A DNA stretch of 38,027 nt, from contig JACRCA010000114.1 in the NCBI GenBank assembly GCA_016234425.1, positions 1 through 38,027 of the forward strand, given 5' to 3'. The stretch is from Deltaproteobacteria bacterium (GTDB lineage: Bacteria > Desulfobacterota > SM23-61). Under the pieces are notes generated by a model. That model made no database searches. It saw only the letters and a list, made by a program, of their open reading frames with translations, and was not told the DNA's origin. This document shows, in pieces, positions 2,259 to 31,437 of the stretch; within the stretch, counting starts at the first letter, position 1, and each line of letters starts with the position of its first letter. The position numbers were made by a program, and so were the translations under genes.

Positions 2259-5200
2259 TTGCGCGAAAAAGCACAGGAGGTAGGGAACATCCCTCTCAGT
2301 CCGATCCTTGTTGAAGGGGCCCGGCAGAACAATCTCAAGTGTGTCTCCGTCCATGTCCCGGTCGGCGCGGTAACCGTTGTAACGGGCGTGGCTGGCGCCG
2401 GCAAGTCCTCCCTCGCCTTCGACGTCCTCTACGCTGAGGGATACCGTCGATATGTCGAGACCTTCTCCCCCTATGCCCGCCAGTTTCTCGAGCGACTGGA
2501 TCGTCCCGACGCCGATCGAATCGAGGATGTGCTGCCAGCGGTGGCGATCGGACGGACTGCACCTATCCGCACTTCCCGCTCGACCGTCGGAACGATGACC
2601 TCCATCGATGATTACCTCCGTCCACTTTACGCGCGGGCATCCGTGCTTCACTGTGAAGGCTGCGGCCAGCCCGTCCAGCGCCATTCCCCTTCCTCGATCT
2701 TCCAGGCCCTCTCGTTATCGGCGACAGGGAAGAAAGTGCTCATCTGTTTCACTCGCCAGGTTGGTCGAGTGAGTGCCGCCGCCCTCCGAGAAATCTGCCG
2801 GCAAGCCGGGTTTTCCCGCGTGCTGGAAGAGGGAGAAGGGGTCCCGCTCGAGGAGGCTAAGCTGCCTTCTGAGGGTGGTGCGATTACAGTGGTCCTCGAC
2901 CGGATCCCCATCGATCCAGATCGCCGCCGTCGGATCATCGACTCCCTGGAATCGGCCCTCCGCTTCGGTGGGGGTCGCATGGAGGTGTGGATCGAAGGTG
3001 AAGAAGAGCCAATGCGCTTCAGTGAGAAGCTCCAATGTGCTCAGTGCAACATTAACTATGTCGATCCCACACCGGCCCTCTTCTCCTTTAACAATCCCCT
3101 CGGCGCCTGTGAGACCTGCAATGGGTTCGGCCGGATCATCGATATTGACCCTGATCTGGTGGTTCCTGACCCCGACGTCAGCATCGCCGAGGGTTGCATA
3201 AAACCCTTCCAGACTCCCGCCTACAGCGGATGTCAGGACGATCTGTTGGGCTTTCTACGCCGGCGAAGGATCCCGGCTGACACGCCTTGGCGCGAACTCG
3301 ATGAGGCAGTTCGACGGGTGATCTGGGAAGGCGAGCCAGATGGACCTTGGTATGGGGTTAGTGGACTCTTCGACTGGTTGAAGGGGCGCCGCTATCGCAA
3401 GCAGGCCCGTATTTTTCTGGCCCGTTACCGACGCTATCTCACTTGCCCCGATTGTGGGGGTGGCAGAATTAAGGCCGCAGCGCTTCTCTTTCGCCTGGGA
3501 GGCAAGACCTTACCCGAGGCGGAGAGGATGGCGATCTCCGAGGCCGAGCCGTTCTTTCGCCATTGGTCGGCGCCCATGGGGGATCGGGCGACAGAACTCC
3601 TTCTGAGCGAAATTCGCGGGCGACTTCGGTTTCTCCTGGATGTGGGGCTGGGCTACCTATCTCTGGCACGCATGTCGCGAACCCTTTCAGGGGGTGAGAC
3701 CCAGCGGGTTACGCTCGCCACTGCCCTGGGAGCGTCCCTGACCAGCACGCTCTATGTACTTGACGAGCCCTCCGTCGGTCTCCATCCACGCGACAAAGAG
3801 CAATTGGCCAGGGTGCTGCGGAAACTGGCGGCAGCCGGAAATGCCATAGTGGTCGTGGAGCACGACCCCATCTTCATCCGCGCGGCGGATCGAGTGATCG
3901 ACCTCGGCCCAGGCCCCGGGCGGGATGGAGGCAAGGTGGTCCACCAAGGCACTGTCGCCGGGCTATTGCGCCGGGGAGATTCTCAGACCGCAGCCTATCT
4001 AAGGGGAGAACTACGCATCGCCAGGCCTCCTGAAGACCATGAACGCAGTCCGCACGAGTTGTGGGTCATCGGTGCCCGGGAAAACAACTTGAAGGATCTG
4101 ACTGTCAGCATTCCGTTGGGCCTAGTGGTATGTGTAACCGGAGTGAGCGGATCGGGCAAGTCGACGCTAATCGACCAAGTTCTTTACCGGAATATCCGCC
4201 GCCAGATGGGGCTCCAGGCGATGGAGCCCGGAGCCTGCAGGACCATCGAGGGCGTAGAGCACCTGTCGGACGCCGTCCTCATCGATCAATCTCCCTTAAG
4301 CCGCAGCTCCCGCATGAGTGCAGCCACCTACATGCAGGTTCTTGACCCATTGCGCACGGCCTTCGCGAGCACCCGACAAGCCCGGGCTTTGGGTCTCGGC
4401 CGTTCCGCGTTTTCCTTCAATTCCTCCGCCGGTGCCTGCCCTCACTGCAAGGGTTCCGGATACGAAAGAGTGGAGTTGCAGTTCCTGCCAGATGTGTACA
4501 TCCGGTGCCCTGGCTGTGATGGCCAGCGCTTCCGTCCCGACGTGTTGGAGGTTCGAATCCGGGGCTACAACATCGCCGAGGTGTTGTCCCTTCCCGCTGG
4601 GGAGGTGGCCAGACTGTTCAGCGACGACGAGGACATCGTGGGGGCCCTCCGGCCGCTTCTGGACATCGGGCTGGGGTATCTGTCCCTCTCCCAATCCGCC
4701 CCCACCCTCTCCGGGGGAGAAGCCCAGCGACTCAAGCTCGCCAGGCACCTAGCTGAGGCGCGCAAGGTACAGAACCTCCTCTTCATTTTAGACGAGCCGA
4801 CCACCGGGCTCCATCCAGCCAACATCTCCGAATTGGTAAGCGCGCTCCACCATCTGGTGCGGGCAGGCCATTCAGTGGTAATGGTCGAACATGATATGGA
4901 CGTTGCCCGGGCTGCCGATTGGATCATCGATCTCGGCCCGGAAGGCGGAGAACAGGGAGGGCGGGTCGTGGGCCAAGGCCTACCCGATGAGATCGCCAAA
5001 CTTGACACGCCCACCGGCTATGCGCTACGGAAAGCGGTCATCTGGTCGCTACGGGACGATCAGACGGCCCGTACTCGCTCGATCCGTCCAGGGCGTCCTT
5101 CTCCCCGAAATCGGGACATCCGCATCGTGGGAGCGCGAGAGCATAATCTGGACAACCTGCGGGTGAAGCTTCCGCGTAACCGCTTCATTGCGGTCACGGG

Positions 5201-7601
5201 GGTAAGCGGCTCGGGTAAATCCACCTTAGCTTTCGATGTGTTGTACACTGAAGGGCGCAGGCGATTTCTCGACTGCCTGCCCGCCTATGCCCGCCAGTAT
5301 ACCCCACCTCTGGCACGACCGGAAGTGGACCGCATCGAAGGAATTCCGCCTACCGTGGCCCTCGAGCAAAAGATGTCCCGGGCCGGGGCTATGTCCACAG
5401 CTGGTACCGCCTCGGAGGTCTACCATTATTTCCGGTTGCTCTTCGCCTCGCTGGGGGTACCGCACTGTCCGAAATGCGGCATTCCTGGAGAAGCCATTGA
5501 CGCCACCAGAATTATCGAACGAATCGTGGAACATTTCGCCGGCCAGGAAGTTATGATCCTGGCGCCTCTGATTCGGAAACGAAAGGGACATCACCGCGAG
5601 GTCATTGAGAGAGCAGCCAAGCATGGGTTCGATCAGGTACGCATCGATGGAAAAATCTACTCTACGGGGAAACCCCCGCGCCTTGACCGCTACAAGGTCC
5701 ACGACGTCGAGGTCGTAGTGGCCAGAAAAGAAGTTCAAGGTGGGCAGCGCGATGATTTTCGCTCCGCCGTGGAGCGAGGTCTGGCGGTTGGTGGCGGCAT
5801 GGTGATTGCGTCAGTGCCAGGCCGAGGAGAAGACCGGTTCTATTCTACCCGCCAGGCCTGCCCCGAGTGCGGCTCGGGTCTGCCCGTGCCCGACCCGAGG
5901 CTCTTTACCTGGAGCCAGAGGTTTGGGGCGTGCTCCCTGTGCGAAGGATCTGGCGTTGCCTGGTCGGTGGCGGAAGAGAAAAGTGAGCCTCCCCCGTGCC
6001 GGGAATGTGGTGGGACGAGACTCCGCCCGGAGGCCCTGGCAGTTCGGATTAACAACTGGAACATTGGCGATGTTGCCCGTCTGCCGATCCAGGATGCCCG
6101 AGCATGGGTGCAAAATCTCGGACCGATGCGGGAAGAGGTGGGCCAGCGCATAATCCCAGAACTTTTGAGTCGTCTAACTCTGCTCGACAAATTGGGCGTT
6201 GGCTACCTGACCTTGGATCGAGCTACCAACACCCTCGCCACCGGCGAGGCCCAGCGAATCCGGATCGCCGCGGAGCTGGCGTCAAACTTGCGGGGCGTAT
6301 GCTACGTCTTGGACGAGCCGACGGTAGGGCTTCATCCCGGAGATGTGGAAGCGCTTTTGCAGGCCCTCCTCCAACTGCGGGATCGAGGAAACACCGTAGT
6401 CGTGGTGGAGCACGAAGAGCCAGTCATTAGGTCCGCTGACTACGTGATCGATATAGGCCCAGGGGCCGGCTTTTCCGGCGGGCGGTTGGTAAAAACGGGC
6501 CCTCCTCGAGCCATTGAACGTTCGAAGAGATCCGTCACAGGACTTTGGTTGCGGGGTGAGGGGCAACCACCGTCCTGGGTCAGGCGCCCCCTCGCCGGCT
6601 GTGAGCGAATGGAGGTAGTGGGCGCGCGTCTCCACAACCTGCAAAATGTGACTGTGGAACTGCCGCTCGGGCGGCTGGTGGCCGTAACCGGGGCAAGTGG
6701 GTCGGGCAAATCCACTCTAATCCGAGACGTGGTGTACCGCGCCCTGAAGGCGAAGCTTTCCGGCCGCCCGCTACCACCGGTTCTCGAGGACCTGGGGGGG
6801 TGGGAATCGGTTAGCAGAGCCAAAGAGGTGGATGAGTCTCCCATAGGGCGCACCCCGCGCTCAGTTCCAGCGACCTACGTGGGAGTCATGGATTCCATCC
6901 GGGACATCTTTGCTCATACGCCGGACGCGCGGGCCCGTGGTTACGGTGCCGGTCGCTTTTCCTTCAATGTGGCCGGCGGCCGATGTGAGCGATGCCAGGG
7001 GCACGGGCGCCACCGAGTGGAGATGCCGCTCCTGCCCGTAGTATACATCCCATGTGAAGTGTGCGGGGAGAGCCGCTACAACCCGGACACCCTCGCCGTT
7101 ACCTTCAAAGGCAAATCGATCGCGGATGTCCTGGCAATGACAGTAGACGAGGCCTGGGATCTCTTCGAAGCTTTCCCCCAGGTGGTGCGTCCGCTGAAGT
7201 TCTTGTCGGAGATTGGCCTGGGCTACATCCAACTCGGTCAGCCGAGCCCGACCCTATCTGGCGGCGAAGCGCAGCGGGTCAAACTGGCGGCGGAGATGGC
7301 CATAAGTGGAAATGGTCGATCGTTCTACGTCCTGGATGAGCCGACAACCGGCCTCCATATGGCGGACGTGGCCAAGCTGGTCTCGGTGCTGCAACATTTG
7401 GTCAATCGGGGCGATACGGTTGTGGTCATCGAGCACGACCTGCACGTAGTTGCAGCTGCGGACTGCCTCATCGACTTGGGACCCGGGGGGGGCAAGGAGG
7501 GAGGTTGCGTTGTGGCCTGGGGACCTCCCGAAGAAGTAGCTCGATCCCAGCATTCGCGCACCGCCTTCTACCTCAGAAAATACCTACAGCAACATCGTTG
7601 A
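2259..7601 (+). CDS. UvrA-family protein, tandem head-to-tail duplication (four ABC ATPase modules, 1780 aa)
   Basis: Four Walker A motifs (GVAGAGKS, GVSGSGKS, GVSGSGKS, GASGSGKS). Four signature motifs (LSGGETQR, LSGGEAQR, LATGEAQR, LSGGEAQR). Four LDEPxxGLH Walker B motifs. Repeated CxxC zinc knuckles. N-terminus LVEGARQNNLK...VVTGVAGAGKSSLAFDVLYAEGYRRYVETFSPYARQF is classic UvrA. The second unit starts near 5110 (IRIVGAREHNLDNL). The start is uncertain: TTG at 2259 has no clear SD. Confidence 0.9.
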   Translation: MREKAQEVGNIPLSPILVEGARQNNLKCVSVHVPVGAVTVVTGVAGAGKSSLAFDVLYAEGYRRYVETFSPYARQFLERLDRPDADRIEDVLPAVAIGRTAPIRTSRSTVGTMTSIDDYLRPLYARASVLHCEGCGQPVQRHSPSSIFQALSLSATGKKVLICFTRQVGRVSAAALREICRQAGFSRVLEEGEGVPLEEAKLPSEGGAITVVLDRIPIDPDRRRRIIDSLESALRFGGGRMEVWIEGEEEPMRFSEKLQCAQCNINYVDPTPALFSFNNPLGACETCNGFGRIIDIDPDLVVPDPDVSIAEGCIKPFQTPAYSGCQDDLLGFLRRRRIPADTPWRELDEAVRRVIWEGEPDGPWYGVSGLFDWLKGRRYRKQARIFLARYRRYLTCPDCGGGRIKAAALLFRLGGKTLPEAERMAISEAEPFFRHWSAPMGDRATELLLSEIRGRLRFLLDVGLGYLSLARMSRTLSGGETQRVTLATALGASLTSTLYVLDEPSVGLHPRDKEQLARVLRKLAAAGNAIVVVEHDPIFIRAADRVIDLGPGPGRDGGKVVHQGTVAGLLRRGDSQTAAYLRGELRIARPPEDHERSPHELWVIGARENNLKDLTVSIPLGLVVCVTGVSGSGKSTLIDQVLYRNIRRQMGLQAMEPGACRTIEGVEHLSDAVLIDQSPLSRSSRMSAATYMQVLDPLRTAFASTRQARALGLGRSAFSFNSSAGACPHCKGSGYERVELQFLPDVYIRCPGCDGQRFRPDVLEVRIRGYNIAEVLSLPAGEVARLFSDDEDIVGALRPLLDIGLGYLSLSQSAPTLSGGEAQRLKLARHLAEARKVQNLLFILDEPTTGLHPANISELVSALHHLVRAGHSVVMVEHDMDVARAADWIIDLGPEGGEQGGRVVGQGLPDEIAKLDTPTGYALRKAVIWSLRDDQTARTRSIRPGRPSPRNRDIRIVGAREHNLDNLRVKLPRNRFIAVTGVSGSGKSTLAFDVLYTEGRRRFLDCLPAYARQYTPPLARPEVDRIEGIPPTVALEQKMSRAGAMSTAGTASEVYHYFRLLFASLGVPHCPKCGIPGEAIDATRIIERIVEHFAGQEVMILAPLIRKRKGHHREVIERAAKHGFDQVRIDGKIYSTGKPPRLDRYKVHDVEVVVARKEVQGGQRDDFRSAVERGLAVGGGMVIASVPGRGEDRFYSTRQACPECGSGLPVPDPRLFTWSQRFGACSLCEGSGVAWSVAEEKSEPPPCRECGGTRLRPEALAVRINNWNIGDVARLPIQDARAWVQNLGPMREEVGQRIIPELLSRLTLLDKLGVGYLTLDRATNTLATGEAQRIRIAAELASNLRGVCYVLDEPTVGLHPGDVEALLQALLQLRDRGNTVVVVEHEEPVIRSADYVIDIGPGAGFSGGRLVKTGPPRAIERSKRSVTGLWLRGEGQPPSWVRRPLAGCERMEVVGARLHNLQNVTVELPLGRLVAVTGASGSGKSTLIRDVVYRALKAKLSGRPLPPVLEDLGGWESVSRAKEVDESPIGRTPRSVPATYVGVMDSIRDIFAHTPDARARGYGAGRFSFNVAGGRCERCQGHGRHRVEMPLLPVVYIPCEVCGESRYNPDTLAVTFKGKSIADVLAMTVDEAWDLFEAFPQVVRPLKFLSEIGLGYIQLGQPSPTLSGGEAQRVKLAAEMAISGNGRSFYVLDEPTTGLHMADVAKLVSVLQHLVNRGDTVVVIEHDLHVVAAADCLIDLGPGGGKEGGCVVAWGPPEEVARSQHSRTAFYLRKYLQQHR

Positions 7602-17762: not shown

Positions 17763-17888
17763 CCCCCTTTTTCCCAAGCTCGGCTGGCAGACTATGAGAA
17801 GAGGAAAGATGCCTAAATGAAACTCTCGAAAAATGAAAGGAAAATTGGAAAGACCCGAAAAAAGGTGGAAAGGAGAGGAAGGCAAATC

Positions 17889-19043
17889 ATGAGGCAAATG
17901 CGATCTTTCGTGGCCCTCTTTTGTTTAATATCTGCGACCTTTGGGTATCTAATAGCTACAAGCTCGGCCCAAGAAGGGGTTGCATCCGGGCGTTTACTCA
18001 CAGAGCAGGAAGTTGCCACAGAAAAATTCTTCTCCAGCTTGGAAGCTGCCCTGGCTAAAAAGTTTTTTGACCACCGCAAGCGGCCTGTTATTCGAGTGGC
18101 CATCTTCGATTTTACAGATGAGGCAGGCAATGTGGTAAAGTCCGGTAGAGAATTGGCCGATAAGATCACCAGGCGTCTGTATGGTAAGCCTCAATTTGAG
18201 GTGGTTGGCCAGGGGAAAATTAACCGTTATTTGAGTTGGAGTGGGCTCAGCGCTTTAGGGAAGCTGGATGCCGAAAGCCTGTATCGCTTACAACGCCGGA
18301 TCAATACGATGGACCCTAACAACGGAATCCATGTCCTGGTCAGAGGGGAAGTGAAGAAAGGAGTGGGTCGAAGCCTTCGCGTTTCAGCCTCATTGGTCGA
18401 TTTTCGATTCAGAATCGGGGCCATTGAGTTGGAAAAAAACATATTTGATCACCTGGCGTTGACAACAGAAATCCCCCTGCCAACGGAACAAGCGTTGCAA
18501 GAGGCTAGCGAAATTCTAATAGCGGGAGAGAAACGCCTGCAAGAGGAAGGTCGACTCCTGATCTTGGTCAACACTCGGGGAAACCCCCTTTTGGAGACCG
18601 AATATGGCCGCCATTTTAGCAAGGATCAAGCCTTTCCTTGGGCGAAGATTCCTCATGTCCTTACCCTCGGGAAGGCCGAAGTAATCATCCCCGAACAGCT
18701 CAGAATTGGACTGGAAAAGCTTCTTCTCTCACCCTTGGGGAGCGGGAGGAACTCTAAAGGATTGGAATACTCCTTTTTGCATGGCAAATGTGCCACTAAC
18801 GAGGTCTATTTCGATGAAATGATTCCCGCGCAAAGCTACCGCTTGACTACCAGCTTCCTTGACCTAAAAACCAACGAAACTTATTCTCAATCCTCGGAGG
18901 TCCAGGTTGATGCTGGGGTTACGACCCTCGTAGTCTTGTCCATTTATGTCCCCAGCGAAAAGGAGCGAATCCGGAACAAGGAGACTCCGCGAATTGATGT
19001 CTTTCAGCTTTTCGGCAAAGGGATGGAGATTTTGCCGAAGTAA
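17889..19043 (+). CDS. Secreted protein of unknown function; N-terminal domain resembles the LpoB/TolB-N-type scaffold (VAIFDF motif)
   Basis: Signal peptide MRQMRSFVALFCLISATFGYLIATSSA|QEG after GGAGAGGAAGG (17870-17880), spaced 8 nt from the ATG. RVAIFDFTDEAGNVVKSGRELADKITRRL...VLVRGEV...LRVSASLVD follows the pattern of periplasmic scaffold domains. The rest is not recognisable. An alternative start at ATG 17817 would add a 24-aa basic N-region. Confidence 0.65.
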   Translation: MRQMRSFVALFCLISATFGYLIATSSAQEGVASGRLLTEQEVATEKFFSSLEAALAKKFFDHRKRPVIRVAIFDFTDEAGNVVKSGRELADKITRRLYGKPQFEVVGQGKINRYLSWSGLSALGKLDAESLYRLQRRINTMDPNNGIHVLVRGEVKKGVGRSLRVSASLVDFRFRIGAIELEKNIFDHLALTTEIPLPTEQALQEASEILIAGEKRLQEEGRLLILVNTRGNPLLETEYGRHFSKDQAFPWAKIPHVLTLGKAEVIIPEQLRIGLEKLLLSPLGSGRNSKGLEYSFLHGKCATNEVYFDEMIPAQSYRLTTSFLDLKTNETYSQSSEVQVDAGVTTLVVLSIYVPSEKERIRNKETPRIDVFQLFGKGMEILPK

Positions 19044-19054
19044 ATAGGGGAAAC

Positions 19055-20107
19055 ATGGGACTCTTTGCTAAGAAAGATTTGATCGGTTTAGATATCGGAT
19101 CGAGTTCCATCAAGGCGGTGGAGTTAGATTGGGGGAAGAAAACTCCGAGGCTTAAACATTTCGGGATGATCCCCTTGCCACCGGAGGCCATCGTGGATGG
19201 CGCGTTCATGGATTCAGCCAGTATCGTGGAATCGATCCGCAGCCTGATTGAAGGGCTGAGAATAAAAACCAAGAAGGTGGCCGTATCCATCTCGGGCCAT
19301 TCGGTGTATATCAAAAGCATCAACGTTCCGACCATGTCGGAGACTCAACTGGAAGAAAGTATCAAATGGGAAGCCGAGCAGCAAATTCCCTTCGACATAG
19401 AGGATGTCAGCTTGGACTTTCAAATCCTGGATGAACAGATGAGCCCCGAGCAGATGCCCGTCCTTTTGGTGGCGGCTAAGAAAGATATGATCAACGATTA
19501 CACGGCTGTGATCGAAGAAGCTGGCCTGCAACCGACAATTGTGGACGTAGACGTATTCGCCATCGAGAACGCGTATAACTTAAGCTTCGAATCTCCGGAA
19601 GATGAAGTTGTAGCCTTGGTGAACATCGGGGCCAGTGTTATGAACATAAACATTCTGAAAGGGGGAACCTCAGCCTTCACCCGGGATATCGCCATTGGCG
19701 GTCGACAGATCACGGAGGAAATCCAAAAACGTCTGAAGCTCACCTATGAGGAGGCCGAATCCTTGAAAATCAGAGAGCGGGATGCTGGAACTCAGAGCGC
19801 GGAAGTAGAACGGATCATTCGGGGAACGGCAGAGCAGTTAGCCTCCGAGGTTCGGCGTTCTCTGGAGTTTTTTGCAGCTTCTTCTTCGGGGGTTGAGATC
19901 AAGAAGATTTTCCTCAGTGGGGGATGCGCCAAGATTCAGATCCTTCCCGGCCTAATCGAAGAGCGTATCTCTATTCCTGTAGAAGTTTTTAACCCCTTTA
20001 CCAAAATTGATTACAATCCGGATATATTCGACCCTGAGTATATCAAGCAAGTGGCCCCCTTAGCCGCAGTGGGTGTGGGATTGGCCTTGAGGAGAGAGAG
20101 GGATTAA
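19055..20107 (+). CDS. pilM: Type IV pilus assembly protein PilM (actin-like ATPase fold)
   Basis: GLDIGSSSIKAVEL..., FAIENAY, IGASVMNINIL and AFTRDIAIGG. 350 aa, followed by pilNOPQ. Confidence 0.9.
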   Translation: MGLFAKKDLIGLDIGSSSIKAVELDWGKKTPRLKHFGMIPLPPEAIVDGAFMDSASIVESIRSLIEGLRIKTKKVAVSISGHSVYIKSINVPTMSETQLEESIKWEAEQQIPFDIEDVSLDFQILDEQMSPEQMPVLLVAAKKDMINDYTAVIEEAGLQPTIVDVDVFAIENAYNLSFESPEDEVVALVNIGASVMNINILKGGTSAFTRDIAIGGRQITEEIQKRLKLTYEEAESLKIRERDAGTQSAEVERIIRGTAEQLASEVRRSLEFFAASSSGVEIKKIFLSGGCAKIQILPGLIEERISIPVEVFNPFTKIDYNPDIFDPEYIKQVAPLAAVGVGLALRRERD

Positions 20108-24385: not shown

Positions 24386-24403
24386 AAAATTCCGTCGCCG
24401 CAG

Positions 24404-24431
24404 AAGGGCACCCCGAGGGTGCCCTTTTTTT
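24404..24431 (+). terminator. Rho-independent terminator after pilQ
   Basis: AAGGGCACC-CCGAG-GGTGCCCTT forms a 9-bp GC-rich stem followed by a T-run (TTTTTTT), 19 nt after the pilQ stop. Confidence 0.8.
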
Positions 24432-27123: not shown

Positions 27124-27210
27124 GCTGCGTTGAAAGGTGATAATATTCGAACGAATTTTCCTCCCAGGTCTTTTTGGCCATATCTTTGAATACCCTTTAA
27201 GGAGGTATCC

Positions 27211-29967
27211 ATGGGCGGATGGAAATGGGCGCGTTGCGGAGCAGTGGCCATTGCTCTGGCCATCGGGATTGCCGGATGCGTTTACACACAACGCACAAAG
27301 ATTGCGCCTCCCGTTGTAGCTGCCTTTAAGGGGGAGTCGCGGGTGGATCCATACCTCCTTGATCACCAGCCCCAGACAGTGGCTGTCTTGCCCTTCTCGA
27401 ACAGGACCGATAAGCAAGAAGCCTTCGACATAGTTCGTAAATCCTTCCAGGGACATTTCAGCAGATTGAATTATACCACCATGCCTTTATTCAAAGTGGA
27501 TGACTCTCTCAATAAAGCCGGCTTAGATACTCCGGAAAAAGTTGCCCAGGCTTCGCCGCAAAGACTTCGAGAAATTCTAAAAGCTGATGCGGTCATCCGG
27601 GGAGATATCACCCATTACGAGCGAGTTTTTGTGGGGGTTTACTCCCAAGTAGCCGTAGGGGCTGAAGTTCGGATGGTCGAAGGAAAATCAGGGAAAGAAC
27701 TCTGGTGGGCCAAAGATGTTTCTCGTAAACATGCCGGAGGGATATCCACAACGCCAGTCGGGTTGATCTTAACCGCCGTCGCCACTGCCCTGAATATAAG
27801 GGAGATTGAGCTACTCCGTTCCTCAGATGATCTCTTCCGAGATATGGTCAAAACCATCCCTCAACCCACGCTGGCCCAAGCCCTGAGGCCCCCGAACATT
27901 ACCATATTAGTGCACGATGGAATGAGGCGTTCGGATAAATACGCCAATAAAGTAGGGGATGTCATTAAGGTAGCCATGGAGGGAGACCCAAGGATGAGGG
28001 CTTTCTTCGGGATCGGGGATTTCAAAAAGGACGTTCCTCTTAAGGAAGGAGAGCCAGGCGTCTACGTGGGAAGTTATAAGGTTATGCCCAGAGACAATGC
28101 CGAGGATGCGCTCATCACAGGAACGCTCATGAATGATGCCGGCAGTTCTACAGATTGGGTAGATGTACTGGGTCCAGTAACCATCGACACCACGCCGCCG
28201 GAAATGCCCGGGGGATTAAGAGCCCTTGGAAGGGACAGAATGGTGGATTTGAGCTGGTCGAAGAGCGTAGACAAAGACATCGCCAAGTATAAAATTTATA
28301 GGAGCGGTACCCCTCTGACCGGATACCAGGAAGTGGCGACAACTGAATTAACCGCTTTCCATGATAAGAACCTGAAGAATGAAATGAGTTATTATTACAA
28401 AGTTTCCGCCGTAGACTTGGCCGGCAACGAAAGTAAACTTTCGGACCTAACCAAAGCAACGACTGTGACGCCTGGCCCAACTCCTGTTCAGGGGATGATC
28501 TTAGGAGAAACAACCTGGTACGCCGGAGCGAGTCCTTACATTATAGAAGGGCAGGTCTTGGTGGGCCAAAAGGCTACCCTGTTCATCGAACCGGGAACCA
28601 TCATTCGCTCCAAGGGCGAAGGGATTTCTGTCCTCGGGAAATTGATCGCCAAGGGTGATCAAAACAGCCTGATCACCCTGGAAGCGGCAGCGCCGGAGAA
28701 GCCTTGGAAGGGGATTGTTTTTGATGGAACGAAAAATGAAGAAAGCGCCATCGAATATGCCAAAATCAGGGGGGCGGTTGCCGGGATTACCTGCCTTTCG
28801 TCTTCGCCAGTAGTTGCCCACAACGATATTTCCAATAACCAAGTGGGCATTCGGATCAGTGAATCTTTCTCCCAGCCCAAAATTTTGGGGAACACCATTT
28901 CTTCCAATGCGATGGCTGGAGTTGAAGTCTCGGCGGCGGCGACTCCTCATCTGGAAGAAAACGAGATCCGCGGCAACCAAAAGGATGGAGTCTCCAGCCG
29001 GGAAGCCAGGCCGTTGTTGATGAAAAATCGAATCGCGAATAACGGGGAAGTCGGAGTCCGGCTTTTTTCATCAGCGGCTCGTCTGCTCCACAACAACATT
29101 CATGACAACGGGAAATATGAGGTTTACAACGCTCTGGAGAGGGATGTGCATGTGGAGGCCAAAGACAACTGGTGGGGGACAAAGGAGGGTCTGAAGGTTA
29201 TCGGAAAAATTTTTGGTAGAGTGGAATACCAGCGGGTGCTGGACGCTCCCTATCCCCAGGGCAGGCCACTGGACCTTTCTATCCTGAAAAGTCCGCTGAC
29301 TGGCCCAATTGACCGAGACTCTTTCCTGACCTTAGTCAACAGCCCCTACGTAGTGGAGAAGGATGTGATTGTAGAGAAGGGGGCCACTCTTTTCATCGAG
29401 CCCGGGGTAACTCTAAGGTACAACCCGGGAGCTTCGATGGTTGTAAAAGATGGGGGCGTTGATGCCAGGGGGACAGGTGACCAGGTGATAACTTTTACAT
29501 CTAACAGTTCCTCGCCCTCGCCAGGGAGTTACCCTTCTGGGGTAAAGTTTGAACAGCCTTCGAAGCTGGCCAGTTTCTTCCGCTATTGCATTTTCGAATA
29601 CGCTGAGACGGGCTTAGACATTTCTTATGGTGCCCCCGAAATCGATCATTGCTTGATTGCCCATCATTCTCAAGTTGGAGTTAAGGTAGCCAGGGAGGCT
29701 GAGCCCAGAATTTTTTTCAGCACCTTCGCCAAGATTTTGGGGACTGGGGCAGTGGTGGCTCTGGGGGCCTCCAGGCCTAAAATTAACCGAAATAATTTCC
29801 TGGATAACCCATTTGCCATTCAAAGTTTCTCTTCGATTTATTTAGACGCCAGGGAGAACTGGTGGGGGTCGAGTCCACCAAAAGAATCGCTATTTTTGGG
29901 GGAGATCAATTATAAACCTTGGCTAGATGGTCCAGCAGTGGGGGCCTTTCAAGGGAGGAAGCCGTGA
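27211..29967 (+). CDS. 918-aa lipoprotein: DUF799/GNA1162-like N-domain, beta-sandwich, FN3, then two right-handed beta-helix (PbH1/CASH-like) modules
   Basis: Lipobox AIGIAGC after AAGGAGG. TVAVLPFSNRTDKQEAFDIVRKSF...ADAVIRGDITHYERVFVGVYSQVAVGAEVRMVEGKSGKELWWAK is DUF799-like. The FN3-like part is MVDLSWSKSVDKDIAKYKIYRSG...SYYYKVSAVDLAGNES. Two modules carry repeated xNxIxxNxxxGI turns (HNDISNNQVGIRIS, GNTISSNAMAGVEVS, ENEIRGNQKDGV, KNRIANNGEVGVRL, HNNIHDNGKYEV). Each module ends in (D/E)NWWG, at about 29164 and about 29854. Confidence 0.8.
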   Translation: MGGWKWARCGAVAIALAIGIAGCVYTQRTKIAPPVVAAFKGESRVDPYLLDHQPQTVAVLPFSNRTDKQEAFDIVRKSFQGHFSRLNYTTMPLFKVDDSLNKAGLDTPEKVAQASPQRLREILKADAVIRGDITHYERVFVGVYSQVAVGAEVRMVEGKSGKELWWAKDVSRKHAGGISTTPVGLILTAVATALNIREIELLRSSDDLFRDMVKTIPQPTLAQALRPPNITILVHDGMRRSDKYANKVGDVIKVAMEGDPRMRAFFGIGDFKKDVPLKEGEPGVYVGSYKVMPRDNAEDALITGTLMNDAGSSTDWVDVLGPVTIDTTPPEMPGGLRALGRDRMVDLSWSKSVDKDIAKYKIYRSGTPLTGYQEVATTELTAFHDKNLKNEMSYYYKVSAVDLAGNESKLSDLTKATTVTPGPTPVQGMILGETTWYAGASPYIIEGQVLVGQKATLFIEPGTIIRSKGEGISVLGKLIAKGDQNSLITLEAAAPEKPWKGIVFDGTKNEESAIEYAKIRGAVAGITCLSSSPVVAHNDISNNQVGIRISESFSQPKILGNTISSNAMAGVEVSAAATPHLEENEIRGNQKDGVSSREARPLLMKNRIANNGEVGVRLFSSAARLLHNNIHDNGKYEVYNALERDVHVEAKDNWWGTKEGLKVIGKIFGRVEYQRVLDAPYPQGRPLDLSILKSPLTGPIDRDSFLTLVNSPYVVEKDVIVEKGATLFIEPGVTLRYNPGASMVVKDGGVDARGTGDQVITFTSNSSSPSPGSYPSGVKFEQPSKLASFFRYCIFEYAETGLDISYGAPEIDHCLIAHHSQVGVKVAREAEPRIFFSTFAKILGTGAVVALGASRPKINRNNFLDNPFAIQSFSSIYLDARENWWGSSPPKESLFLGEINYKPWLDGPAVGAFQGRKP

Positions 29968-30914
29968 AGCGCGCTTTGACTGGTATTATATTTTTATGGG
30001 TAGTTGCCTGGACGGCGATGATTTGGGCAGGGCAGGGGGAGGTAATCGAGCTTATCGGTAATGGGGAAATCAACTGGTCTCAGGGGATCATCCTTGCCAA
30101 GGGGAGTGGAGCTCCCCCCAAAGAGGCCAAAAATATTGCTCAGGCGCGTTTGCTGGCTGAGCGGGCAGCCTTATCCGATGCCCGGCGCAACCTTCTGGAG
30201 GTGCTCAAAGGAGTGCGCATTGATTCGATGACCAGCGTCGAAAGTCATATGCTCAAAAGCGACCAGATCCGGCTGAGTGCCGAAGGGTTCATCCAGGGCT
30301 CCGCGGAGATGAAGGATCAGAGGAGATACCTTTCTGATGGGGCCATCGAGGTAACCGTGGCCATGAACCTAACCGGAGATTTTTTAGTTTTGATGCTCAG
30401 CCTACCCAAAGAATTGAAAATCACCAAACCCTTTGTAATGGAAAGACCTTCTCCCCAACTACCCCCTGCTCTCCCAGAGAAAAAATTGGAACCGCTTTTG
30501 GAAAGACCAAAAGTCGGGGAGCCAGAAAAGCCGTTGTTGGAAACAAAACCCTCGCCGCCTCTTGCAGATCTTCCGAAATTTACTGGATTGGTAGTCGATG
30601 CCCGCGGTCTCAACATGCGGGCGGCATTGATCCCCAAGATTCTGAATGAGGGCGGTCAGGAGTTGTACCGGGGGCCATATGTTCCCTATGAGAAAGCAGC
30701 CCAAAATGGCCTGGCTCTTTATAGTAAAGATCTGACCGCAGCCCAAACAAACCCCCGAGTGGGGAAAAATCCCTTGACCGTCAAAGGGTTCAAGGTGAAA
30801 CCTGAGAGCCCTTCAGACATCATCTTGAGCGCTGAGGAGTCCAAAAAGGTTGCTCCGTTTACGCAGAAGGGGACCTTCTTGGAAGATTGCCGGGTCATGA
30901 TCGTTTTGGATTGA
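29964..30914 (+). CDS. Exported LPP20-like domain protein with Pro-rich linker and uncharacterised C-terminal domain
   Basis: GTG 29964 (GTGA overlap with the upstream stop) gives a signal-like VKRALTGIIFLWVVAWTAMIWA|GQ. AKNIAQARLLAERAALSDARRNLLEVLKGVRIDSMTSVE...GFIQGS...YLSDGAIEVTVAM has the LPP20-type pattern. Linker: PSPQLPPALPEKKLEPLLERPKVGEPEKPLLETKPSPP. The C-terminal domain begins FTGLVVDARGLNMRAALIPKILNEGGQELY. Confidence 0.6.
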   Translation: MKRALTGIIFLWVVAWTAMIWAGQGEVIELIGNGEINWSQGIILAKGSGAPPKEAKNIAQARLLAERAALSDARRNLLEVLKGVRIDSMTSVESHMLKSDQIRLSAEGFIQGSAEMKDQRRYLSDGAIEVTVAMNLTGDFLVLMLSLPKELKITKPFVMERPSPQLPPALPEKKLEPLLERPKVGEPEKPLLETKPSPPLADLPKFTGLVVDARGLNMRAALIPKILNEGGQELYRGPYVPYEKAAQNGLALYSKDLTAAQTNPRVGKNPLTVKGFKVKPESPSDIILSAEESKKVAPFTQKGTFLEDCRVMIVLD

Positions 30915-30921
30915 GGGGCTT

Positions 30922-31437
30922 TTGCAAAGAGTTTCCGTCTTCATCCTTTTAGCTGTTCTTTCTTCTTCTGCGGGTTGTGGGTACCATTTTGCCGACAGCA
31001 GAAGCGGGCTTCCATCCGGCGGCCGGTCGATTGCCATTTCGGGCTTCGCCAACCAAACGATGCAAACCGGTATTGAGAGCGAACTGACCCGTGCCTTGGT
31101 GGAGAAGTTTATTTCCGCCGGACGATTAATCGTGACGAAGCAAATTTCGGCAGAGGCCTTACTGACGGGGAGTGTCAGATCCTTTGTTATTTCTCCTGTT
31201 ACCGTGACTAGCGGGACTCAGGTGGCCACGGAATACCGGGCCACTCTGACCATCGAAGCGACCCTGCAGCGACAAAGAGATGGGAAAGTCCTCTGGAAAG
31301 GAGAGGTCAGCGAGTGGAGGAATTACCGAGTAGTCTCTGACTTGACTACCACCGAAGCCAACAAGAGGGAGGCCATCCGCCAGATATCTGAGCGTTTAGC
31401 CGAGAGGCTGCATGTGATGGTTTGGGAAGATTTTTAA
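30922..31437 (+). CDS. lptE: LPS-assembly lipoprotein LptE
   Basis: TTG start 4-5 nt after GAGGGG. Lipobox LSSSAGCGYHF. About 170 aa. Conserved position between leuS and holA. Confidence 0.7.
   Translation: MQRVSVFILLAVLSSSAGCGYHFADSRSGLPSGGRSIAISGFANQTMQTGIESELTRALVEKFISAGRLIVTKQISAEALLTGSVRSFVISPVTVTSGTQVATEYRATLTIEATLQRQRDGKVLWKGEVSEWRNYRVVSDLTTTEANKREAIRQISERLAERLHVMVWEDF

Follow-up and report, generated by a model that had tools for sequence, protein, structure and literature searches.

What task falls to a DUF799/GNA1162-type lipoprotein domain when it heads a chain of 918 residues? The question is raised by gene X918, which lies at 27211-29967 on the plus strand (918 aa, the last part including the stop codon) of a 38,027-nucleotide stretch of DNA from a Deltaproteobacteria bacterium (GTDB lineage Bacteria; Desulfobacterota; SM23-61; GenBank assembly GCA_016234425.1, contig JACRCA010000114.1, positions 1 to 38,027 of the forward strand). 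The whole of this stretch is called the window below. An earlier reading of the letters, here the preliminary description, had seen in X918 an unusual fusion of a DUF799-like domain with a beta-sandwich, a fibronectin type III (FN3)-like domain and two parallel beta-helix modules, and had predicted a glycan-directed protein anchored in the outer membrane. Our analysis retains this domain layout, the coordinates of which proved accurate within a few residues. We tentatively conclude that X918 is a periplasm-facing, outer-membrane-anchored arm that would hold a glycan polymer and/or protein partners, among them the product of the adjacent gene Y, and would serve as a strut or scaffold rather than as an enzyme; we put the probability of this reading at roughly 0.45, somewhat short of even. 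The domains are all known and the family is already in the databases, and no paper describing the architecture or the partner was found.

Domain composition of X918

The ATG of X918 is preceded, 6 nt upstream, by the Shine-Dalgarno sequence AAGGAGG (27196..27202; this and all further features of X918 are on the plus strand), which reads as a strong ribosome-binding site. The translation opens with a lipoprotein signal peptide (27211..27279) that runs to ...AIGIAG-C23, giving a lipobox I-A-G-C with Cys23. All 44 aligned orthologues, with identities down to 45%, have this cysteine; the same alignment supplies all conservation figures for X918. By these features X918 is predicted to be an outer-membrane-type lipoprotein, in agreement with the preliminary description. 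The linker that follows the lipobox (aa 24-45; 27280..27345) is conserved in its consensus and is modelled by AlphaFold2 (AF2) at low confidence, with a predicted local distance difference test score (pLDDT) below 50 at aa 20-37.

The GNA1162/DUF799 domain occupies aa 46-228 (27346..27894). Pfam assigns aa 52-190 to PF05643 with 58.9 bits against a cut-off of 25.9 (6e-16), and the gene was also recovered by the family scan across the whole genome. A family profile search against the PDB finds the crystal structure of GNA1162, 4HRV, at E 7.8e-16; Foldseek, run with the AF2 model of the whole protein (built on the alignment, mean pLDDT 87.4), returns the same structure at a template-modelling (TM) score of 0.79 on the target and a probability of 1.00. 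The LpoB model found no match in X918 in the Pfam scan. The best conserved part of the entire protein is a helix of this domain, aa 201-220 (within 196-220), with a mean of 0.86. It closes a segment at 27736-27870 (aa 176-220) that begins with a hydrophobic stretch rich in Gly and small residues, GGISTTPVGLILTAVATALNI (aa 176-195, pLDDT below 50), which aligns with the equivalent C-terminal segment of GNA1162. The hydrophobic stretch and the helix could be a membrane-contact or oligomerisation element.

The lipoprotein domain is followed by an immunoglobulin (Ig)-like beta-sandwich at aa 229-322 (27895..28176), with AF2 strands at 230-317 and tandem Ig/FN3 proteins among its Foldseek matches, and by a probable FN3 domain at aa 323-421 (28177..28473), with AF2 strands at 323-418. 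Scanned alone, the Ig-like region yields no Pfam match, and the Pfam fn3 model (PF00041) stays under its cut-off on X918, at 17 bits vs 25. The FN3 assignment is supported by PDB profile matches to 3mpc, 1k85 and 5z06, together with the tandem Ig/FN3 matches in Foldseek. Whole-chain Foldseek results against the PDB are dominated by such tandem FN3/Ig proteins, and beta-helix relatives are not usefully ranked among them.

Two beta-helix modules complete the chain. Module 1 (aa 422-690; 28474..29280) starts with an N-cap, continues with six clear PbH1 coils (513-645) and closes with a cap; it is recognised by the Pfam models Beta_helix (PF13229; 83.9 bits, cut-off 25.9; 1e-23) and NosD (4e-15). 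Module 2 (aa 691-918 and the stop codon; 29281..29967) is delimited by Pfam, by alignment to module 1 and by AF2; scanned alone, it reaches 29.1 bits with Beta_helix against the same cut-off, and its PbH1 motifs are weak. Both are modelled as right-handed beta-helices of regular triple-strand coils, about 424-690 and 696-905, with pLDDT of about 95. Each module ends in a cap in which NWWG is followed by Y-x3-LD, as had been described beforehand: in module 1 the NWWG stands at aa 653-656 (29167-29178) and in module 2 at aa 883-886 (29857-29868). N653, W655 and G656 of the first cap and N883, W884, W885 and G886 of the second are invariant in the orthologues.

The preliminary description had traced the two modules to a duplication followed by divergence and had called module 2 the more degenerate. 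The modules are 24% identical (E 2e-15), and module 2 is shorter by about 60 aa, or roughly 2-3 coils. A Saccharibacteria protein contains the same NWWG-capped module, with N-cap and C-cap, and a 1981-aa Anaerolineales protein contains it several times over; these copies are 23-32% identical to the modules of X918. Since the two modules of X918 resemble one another no more than they resemble these counterparts from other phyla, neither a recent internal duplication nor duplication with later divergence gains specific support. The degeneracy of module 2 is confined to the PbH1 motif: its conservation among the orthologues is 0.66 vs 0.60 in module 1, whose PbH1 core is the least conserved part of X918 (0.50-0.58) and whose surface is the most variable. 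Because module 2 is degenerate in motif yet better conserved than module 1, the alignment suggests that it contacts a conserved partner.

To judge how unusual the fusion is, we consider the homologues of X918 retrieved from 5.8 billion proteins at E<=1e-3 and grouped at 90% identity, with counts taken among the candidates scored. At least 446 clusters were obtained, and nearly all of the best 120 of these 446 are about 910-950 aa long with the same Pfam set. They come mainly from metagenome-assembled genomes of Syntrophales, Syntrophobacterales and other Desulfobacterota, with one labelled Nitrospinae; full-length copies are present in about 17 of the 301 sampled genomes of the phylum, in roughly six families. 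The fusion is therefore unusual relative to the canonical DUF799 protein of about 200 aa, but it is the mark of a large conserved family and not an isolated event. The architecture is common and carries no functional annotation, the homologues being named only "GNA1162 family protein", "DUF799 family lipoprotein" or "parallel beta-helix repeat protein". All full-length homologues also bear the precomputed Pfam assignment PF28492.1, which probably models the C-terminal, second beta-helix region, as guessed from truncated homologues that are devoid of it.

The family also extends into a modular series. When aa 40-421 were searched against 1.84 billion 50%-identity representatives, giant FN3-array proteins swamped the output and single-stretch matches were used; these cover the full core in proteins of 437-949 aa. 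Pfam scans of ten such matches reveal the core alone, the core with one beta-helix (616-691 aa), the core with one beta-helix and TPR repeats (771-818 aa), and the core with two beta-helices (872-949 aa), which is the class of X918. The N-terminal core of about 420 aa is common to the whole series.

Gene Y and the neighbourhood of X918

Immediately downstream of X918 lies Y (29964-30914, plus strand), which encodes 316 aa from a GTG start and was characterised by its sequence, a family alignment, AF2 and Foldseek. The GTG at 29964 overlaps the stop codon of X918 as GTGA and has GGGAGG upstream, an arrangement from which Y is predicted to be translationally coupled to X918. A comparison of phylum-wide searches places Y directly downstream of the X918 orthologue (X) in 14 of the 18 X-bearing genomes.

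According to the family alignment, Y is composed of a Sec signal peptide, an LPP20/FlgP-like domain D1, a Pro/Lys-rich linker of variable length and a second domain, D2. No Pfam coverage was found in 887 clusters related to Y. The AF2 model has a pLDDT of 73, with the linker disordered. The N-domain weakly resembles Tip-alpha and chain A of 9HMF (Campylobacter motor periplasmic scaffold), a chain that we take to be FlgP-like, its identity being unchecked. Foldseek matches both domains of Y, over about 315 aligned columns, to Tp0624 of Treponema pallidum (5JIR; E 4.3e-10, TM score on the query 0.55). The D1-D2 pair of Tp0624 has been described as a functional unit of unknown role, and treponemes carry it fused to a wall-associated, OmpA-like domain (PMC5104382).

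The wider neighbourhood is less stable. Within the window, the order read by eye, with no family scan, is presumably a pilQ-like open reading frame (ORF), leuS, X918, Y, lptE, holA, rpsT (minus strand) and murJ. A strong terminator lies at 24402-24428, at the pilQ-like ORF, and no terminator-like site was seen between the leuS-like and holA-like ORFs. The ORF next to Y in the ORF list (30922..31437, plus strand; given for context only) starts 7 nt past the Y stop and encodes 171 aa with a lipobox; we take it, again by eye and with no family scan, to be LptE-like, and its end is overlapped by the holA-like ORF. Close relatives and one further family (loci L002-L004 and L015) preserve the order leuS-X-Y-lptE-holA, which is lost in L005, L014, L016 and L017. 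At L005, where X is 48% identical, X-Y stands alone between unrelated genes, with the leuS/lptE context absent. Because the gene order is lost at these four loci, the lptE neighbourhood is lineage-specific, and X-Y is the conserved unit. A functional link between X918 and lptE was rejected on the same ground, the order reflecting lineage-specific placement and not having the look of a dependency.

Two features elsewhere in the window are recorded here. A 1780-aa ORF at 2259-7601 lies in a stretch with a G+C content of 0.55-0.62, against about 0.50 in the remainder, and is a compositional outlier. At 17817-19043, a 408-aa ORF without a Pfam match at E<=0.01 ends 11 nt before the next ORF, which starts at 19055 and which we read as pilM.

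Binding arm, enzyme, adhesin or channel subunit

In the arrangement that we favour, the DUF799 domain, with its fold of the TolB-N/LpoB/CsgG type, would sit beneath the outer membrane, and the Ig-like domain, the FN3 domain and the two NosD-type beta-helix modules would form a rigid arm. Fully extended, this arm might reach roughly 15-20 nm into the periplasm, according to a rough arithmetic estimate. Its role would be to bind or scaffold and not to catalyse: the most likely ligand of the beta-helices is a glycan polymer (strands of peptidoglycan or a polysaccharide of the envelope) and/or a protein partner, and periplasmic Y, with its Tp0624 D1-D2-like fold, would work together with X918. Periplasmic orientation, a glycan ligand and physical contact between X918 and Y are each plausible components of this scheme, read from fold and gene order.

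The choice between binding and catalysis turns on the coils of the two helices. Profile matches to the AlgG/AlgE mannuronan epimerases (E 1e-8 to 1e-3, aa 532-660) and Foldseek matches to the pectate lyases Pel3/PelI and a GH28 exopolygalacturonase would be in keeping with a periplasmic beta-helix enzyme tethered to the outer membrane, such as a polysaccharide lyase, a glycosidase or a C5-epimerase. The AlgG/AlgE and pectate lyase matches are, however, confined to generic PbH1 coils. Membership in the AlgG family was rejected, with 16.5 bits for NCBIfam NF038177 against a cut-off of 700, as was membership in the NosD family, with 25.7 bits for TIGR04247 (NosD_copper_fam) against 300, and in neither case are catalytic residues conserved; nos genes (nosFYL/nosZ context) are absent among the window ORFs. 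Across the orthologues, neither helix has a conserved Asp, Glu, His, Lys or Arg within its coils, and in both the conserved polar residues fall on the Asn ladder, on the caps and on a few Trp/Tyr. Since no cluster of acidic, basic or His residues is conserved and only Asn ladders are, an enzymatic role is unlikely and the arm would bind or scaffold; an enzyme of the kinds just named seems to us very improbable. The predicted glycan-directed, outer-membrane-anchored protein of the preliminary description accordingly stays plausible, with the absence of catalytic residues favouring binding or scaffolding over cleavage.

Distant paralogues of X, at about 25% identity, provide a further view of the core. 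They combine the DUF799-sandwich-FN3-beta-helix core with a TPR tail, and their cap reads NYLG in place of NWWG. In three genomes from two families (L012 2-3903, L013 4959-9382, L011 3176-6982) they abut TPR-SpoIID genes, and in two of these three they are also accompanied by Y-like, SLH-domain and DUF748/YhdP-like (AsmA-like) genes. SpoIID is a cell-wall glycan-cleaving family.

These surroundings bear on the side of the membrane that the arm faces. A surface-exposed adhesin, or a matrix or S-layer-like lipoprotein, whose beta-helices bind external polysaccharides or substrates, would be consistent with the recurrence of the NWWG-capped module in Anaerolineales and Saccharibacteria proteins that are very large and presumably extracellular. 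FN3 domains together with beta-helices are a common surface-protein architecture, and the variability of the module 1 surface would suit a face that is exposed and evolves fast. No surface-lipoprotein export genes, however, are adjacent to X918. Its neighbours (Y and the ORFs read as lptE and holA) and the contexts of the paralogues (SpoIID, AsmA-like and TPR lipoproteins) are periplasmic, and Y is Sec-exported without any outer-membrane translocation feature. Moreover, the periplasmic face of the outer membrane is where the fold class of DUF799 (TolB-N/LpoB/CsgG) is known to occur. We therefore regard surface display as improbable, though less so than catalysis.

X918 might also be an accessory subunit of a CsgG-like outer-membrane channel, with the DUF799 domain docked under a CsgG-type ring and the arm guiding or holding secreted polysaccharide or fibre subunits. 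DUF799 genes classically travel with csgG-like genes, and this genome holds such a canonical DUF799-CsgG pair on contig C155, besides a 245-aa DUF799 gene on C304. In addition, contig C42 (L024 3462-8008) carries three genes, for a TPR-CsgG-like lipoprotein, a TolB-N-like/FN3-array protein and a 115-aa protein, and a cluster of this type directly precedes the X orthologue in one operon in G044 and G116, which represent two families. In Acinetobacter baumannii, mutants of a csgG/GNA1162-type cluster lose the polysaccharide poly-N-acetylglucosamine (PNAG), Cup pili and biofilm, and the authors propose a polysaccharide-anchoring complex (bioRxiv 10.1101/2021.05.19.444899); apart from this preprint, a literature search on DUF799, GNA1162, DUF4810 and CsgG-like proteins found no functional study.

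The distribution of the channel genes speaks against this arrangement. The CsgG-TPR cluster was found in only 8 of the 18 genomes with X, none of the 9 other genomes from the window's family yielded it, and the conserved partner, Y, is not CsgG-like. The closest relatives of the C42 cluster (42-46% identity) sit in genomes without X, and the cluster may have been acquired horizontally or lie on a contaminant contig, the contamination of the bin being 6.7%. A tight link between X918 and the CsgG-TPR cluster was rejected as only partial, given co-occurrence in 8 of 18 genomes, a common operon in two and no cluster found in the nine relatives; the association is real in some lineages and not obligatory. 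A channel subunit is thus unlikely in our view, though the least unlikely of the three alternatives.

Several observations also weigh against the non-catalytic periplasmic arm itself. Y lies elsewhere in 4 of the 18 X-bearing genomes and is part of a multigene family; this genome gave five matches to it (on contigs C4, C387 and C41, and two on C319). Only the paralogues of about 25% identity, and not the two-helix clade, show the SpoIID/SLH link, and the patchy occurrence of the CsgG-TPR cluster given above, within the X-bearing genomes and within the window's family, counts on the same side. NosD-type beta-helices can serve as protein scaffolds and not only bind glycans, a lipoprotein such as X918 may be exposed at the surface, and its putative ligand, location and contacts are all read from fold and neighbourhood.

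Relation to known lipoproteins and beta-helix proteins

DUF799/GNA1162 lipoproteins occur widely among Gram-negative bacteria, with Neisseria, Acinetobacter and Vibrio as examples, and GNA1162 has featured in meningococcal antigen studies. A clade in which DUF799 is permanently fused to Ig, FN3 and beta-helix domains offers a concrete, testable hint at what this family does, and the pairings across the clade and its paralogues point in the same direction. Because of this fusion clade and the pairings of its members with a Tp0624-like protein, a SpoIID wall hydrolase or CsgG-like genes, our results suggest that the task of the DUF799 family is to place modules for polymer binding or enzyme scaffolding beneath the outer membrane. 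The main value of X918 is this lead to the function of DUF799 lipoproteins; in addition, the cell envelope of syntrophic Desulfobacterota, itself poorly known, gains a further component. More speculatively, the fusion might be a "Rosetta stone" for the DUF799/GNA1162 family, with DUF799 domains as docking feet that position glycan-handling modules under the outer membrane, and X918 with Y might be an undescribed strut or ruler from the outer membrane to the peptidoglycan in bacteria in which no Braun lipoprotein is found; we consider this doubtful. In this genome, which is 90% complete, no Braun lipoprotein (Lpp) was found, and there is one OmpA-domain gene.

Among beta-helix proteins, those of the NosD/CASH type (PF05048, PF13229) share with X918 the PbH1 coils and the Asn ladder, and the NWWG-type C-terminal cap region of X918 aligns inside the NosD family model (TIGR04247 positions 180-326). 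Unlike NosD, X918 carries its module in tandem, is anchored as a lipoprotein and has Ig/FN3 domains ahead of the helices. The AlgG/AlgE epimerases and pectate lyases have the beta-helix fold in common with X918 and local sequence similarity over about 110 residues, but the helices of X918 are devoid of conserved catalytic residues. For Y, the nearest known relative in fold is Tp0624 (5JIR), with which it shares the D1-D2 tandem; in contrast to Tp0624, Y has no OmpA-like D3, and a long Pro/Lys-rich linker separates its D1 from its D2.

LpoB and NlpI, outer-membrane lipoproteins that regulate or scaffold cell-wall enzymes, are functional analogues only. X918 resembles this class in its predicted outer-membrane lipid anchor, its TolB-N/LpoB-clan fold and its presumed long periplasmic reach; it differs in lacking sequence membership and, in the two-helix clade, an identified penicillin-binding protein or hydrolase partner.

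The closest comparison is with GNA1162 of Neisseria meningitidis (4HRV, PF05643), which shares with X918 an N-terminal lipobox and a common alpha/beta fold. GNA1162-type proteins are single-domain, of about 170-250 aa, and adjoin csgG-like genes, whereas X918 is 918 aa long and carries 690 additional residues that make up the Ig-like domain, the FN3 domain and the two beta-helices. No csgG-like gene stands beside X918 in the window ORF list, where its neighbours are Y and the ORF read as lptE. The two therefore differ in their conserved neighbour: in the three-gene cluster csgG/DUF4810/GNA1162 it is csgG, and for X918 it is the gene of the Tp0624 D1-D2-like protein.

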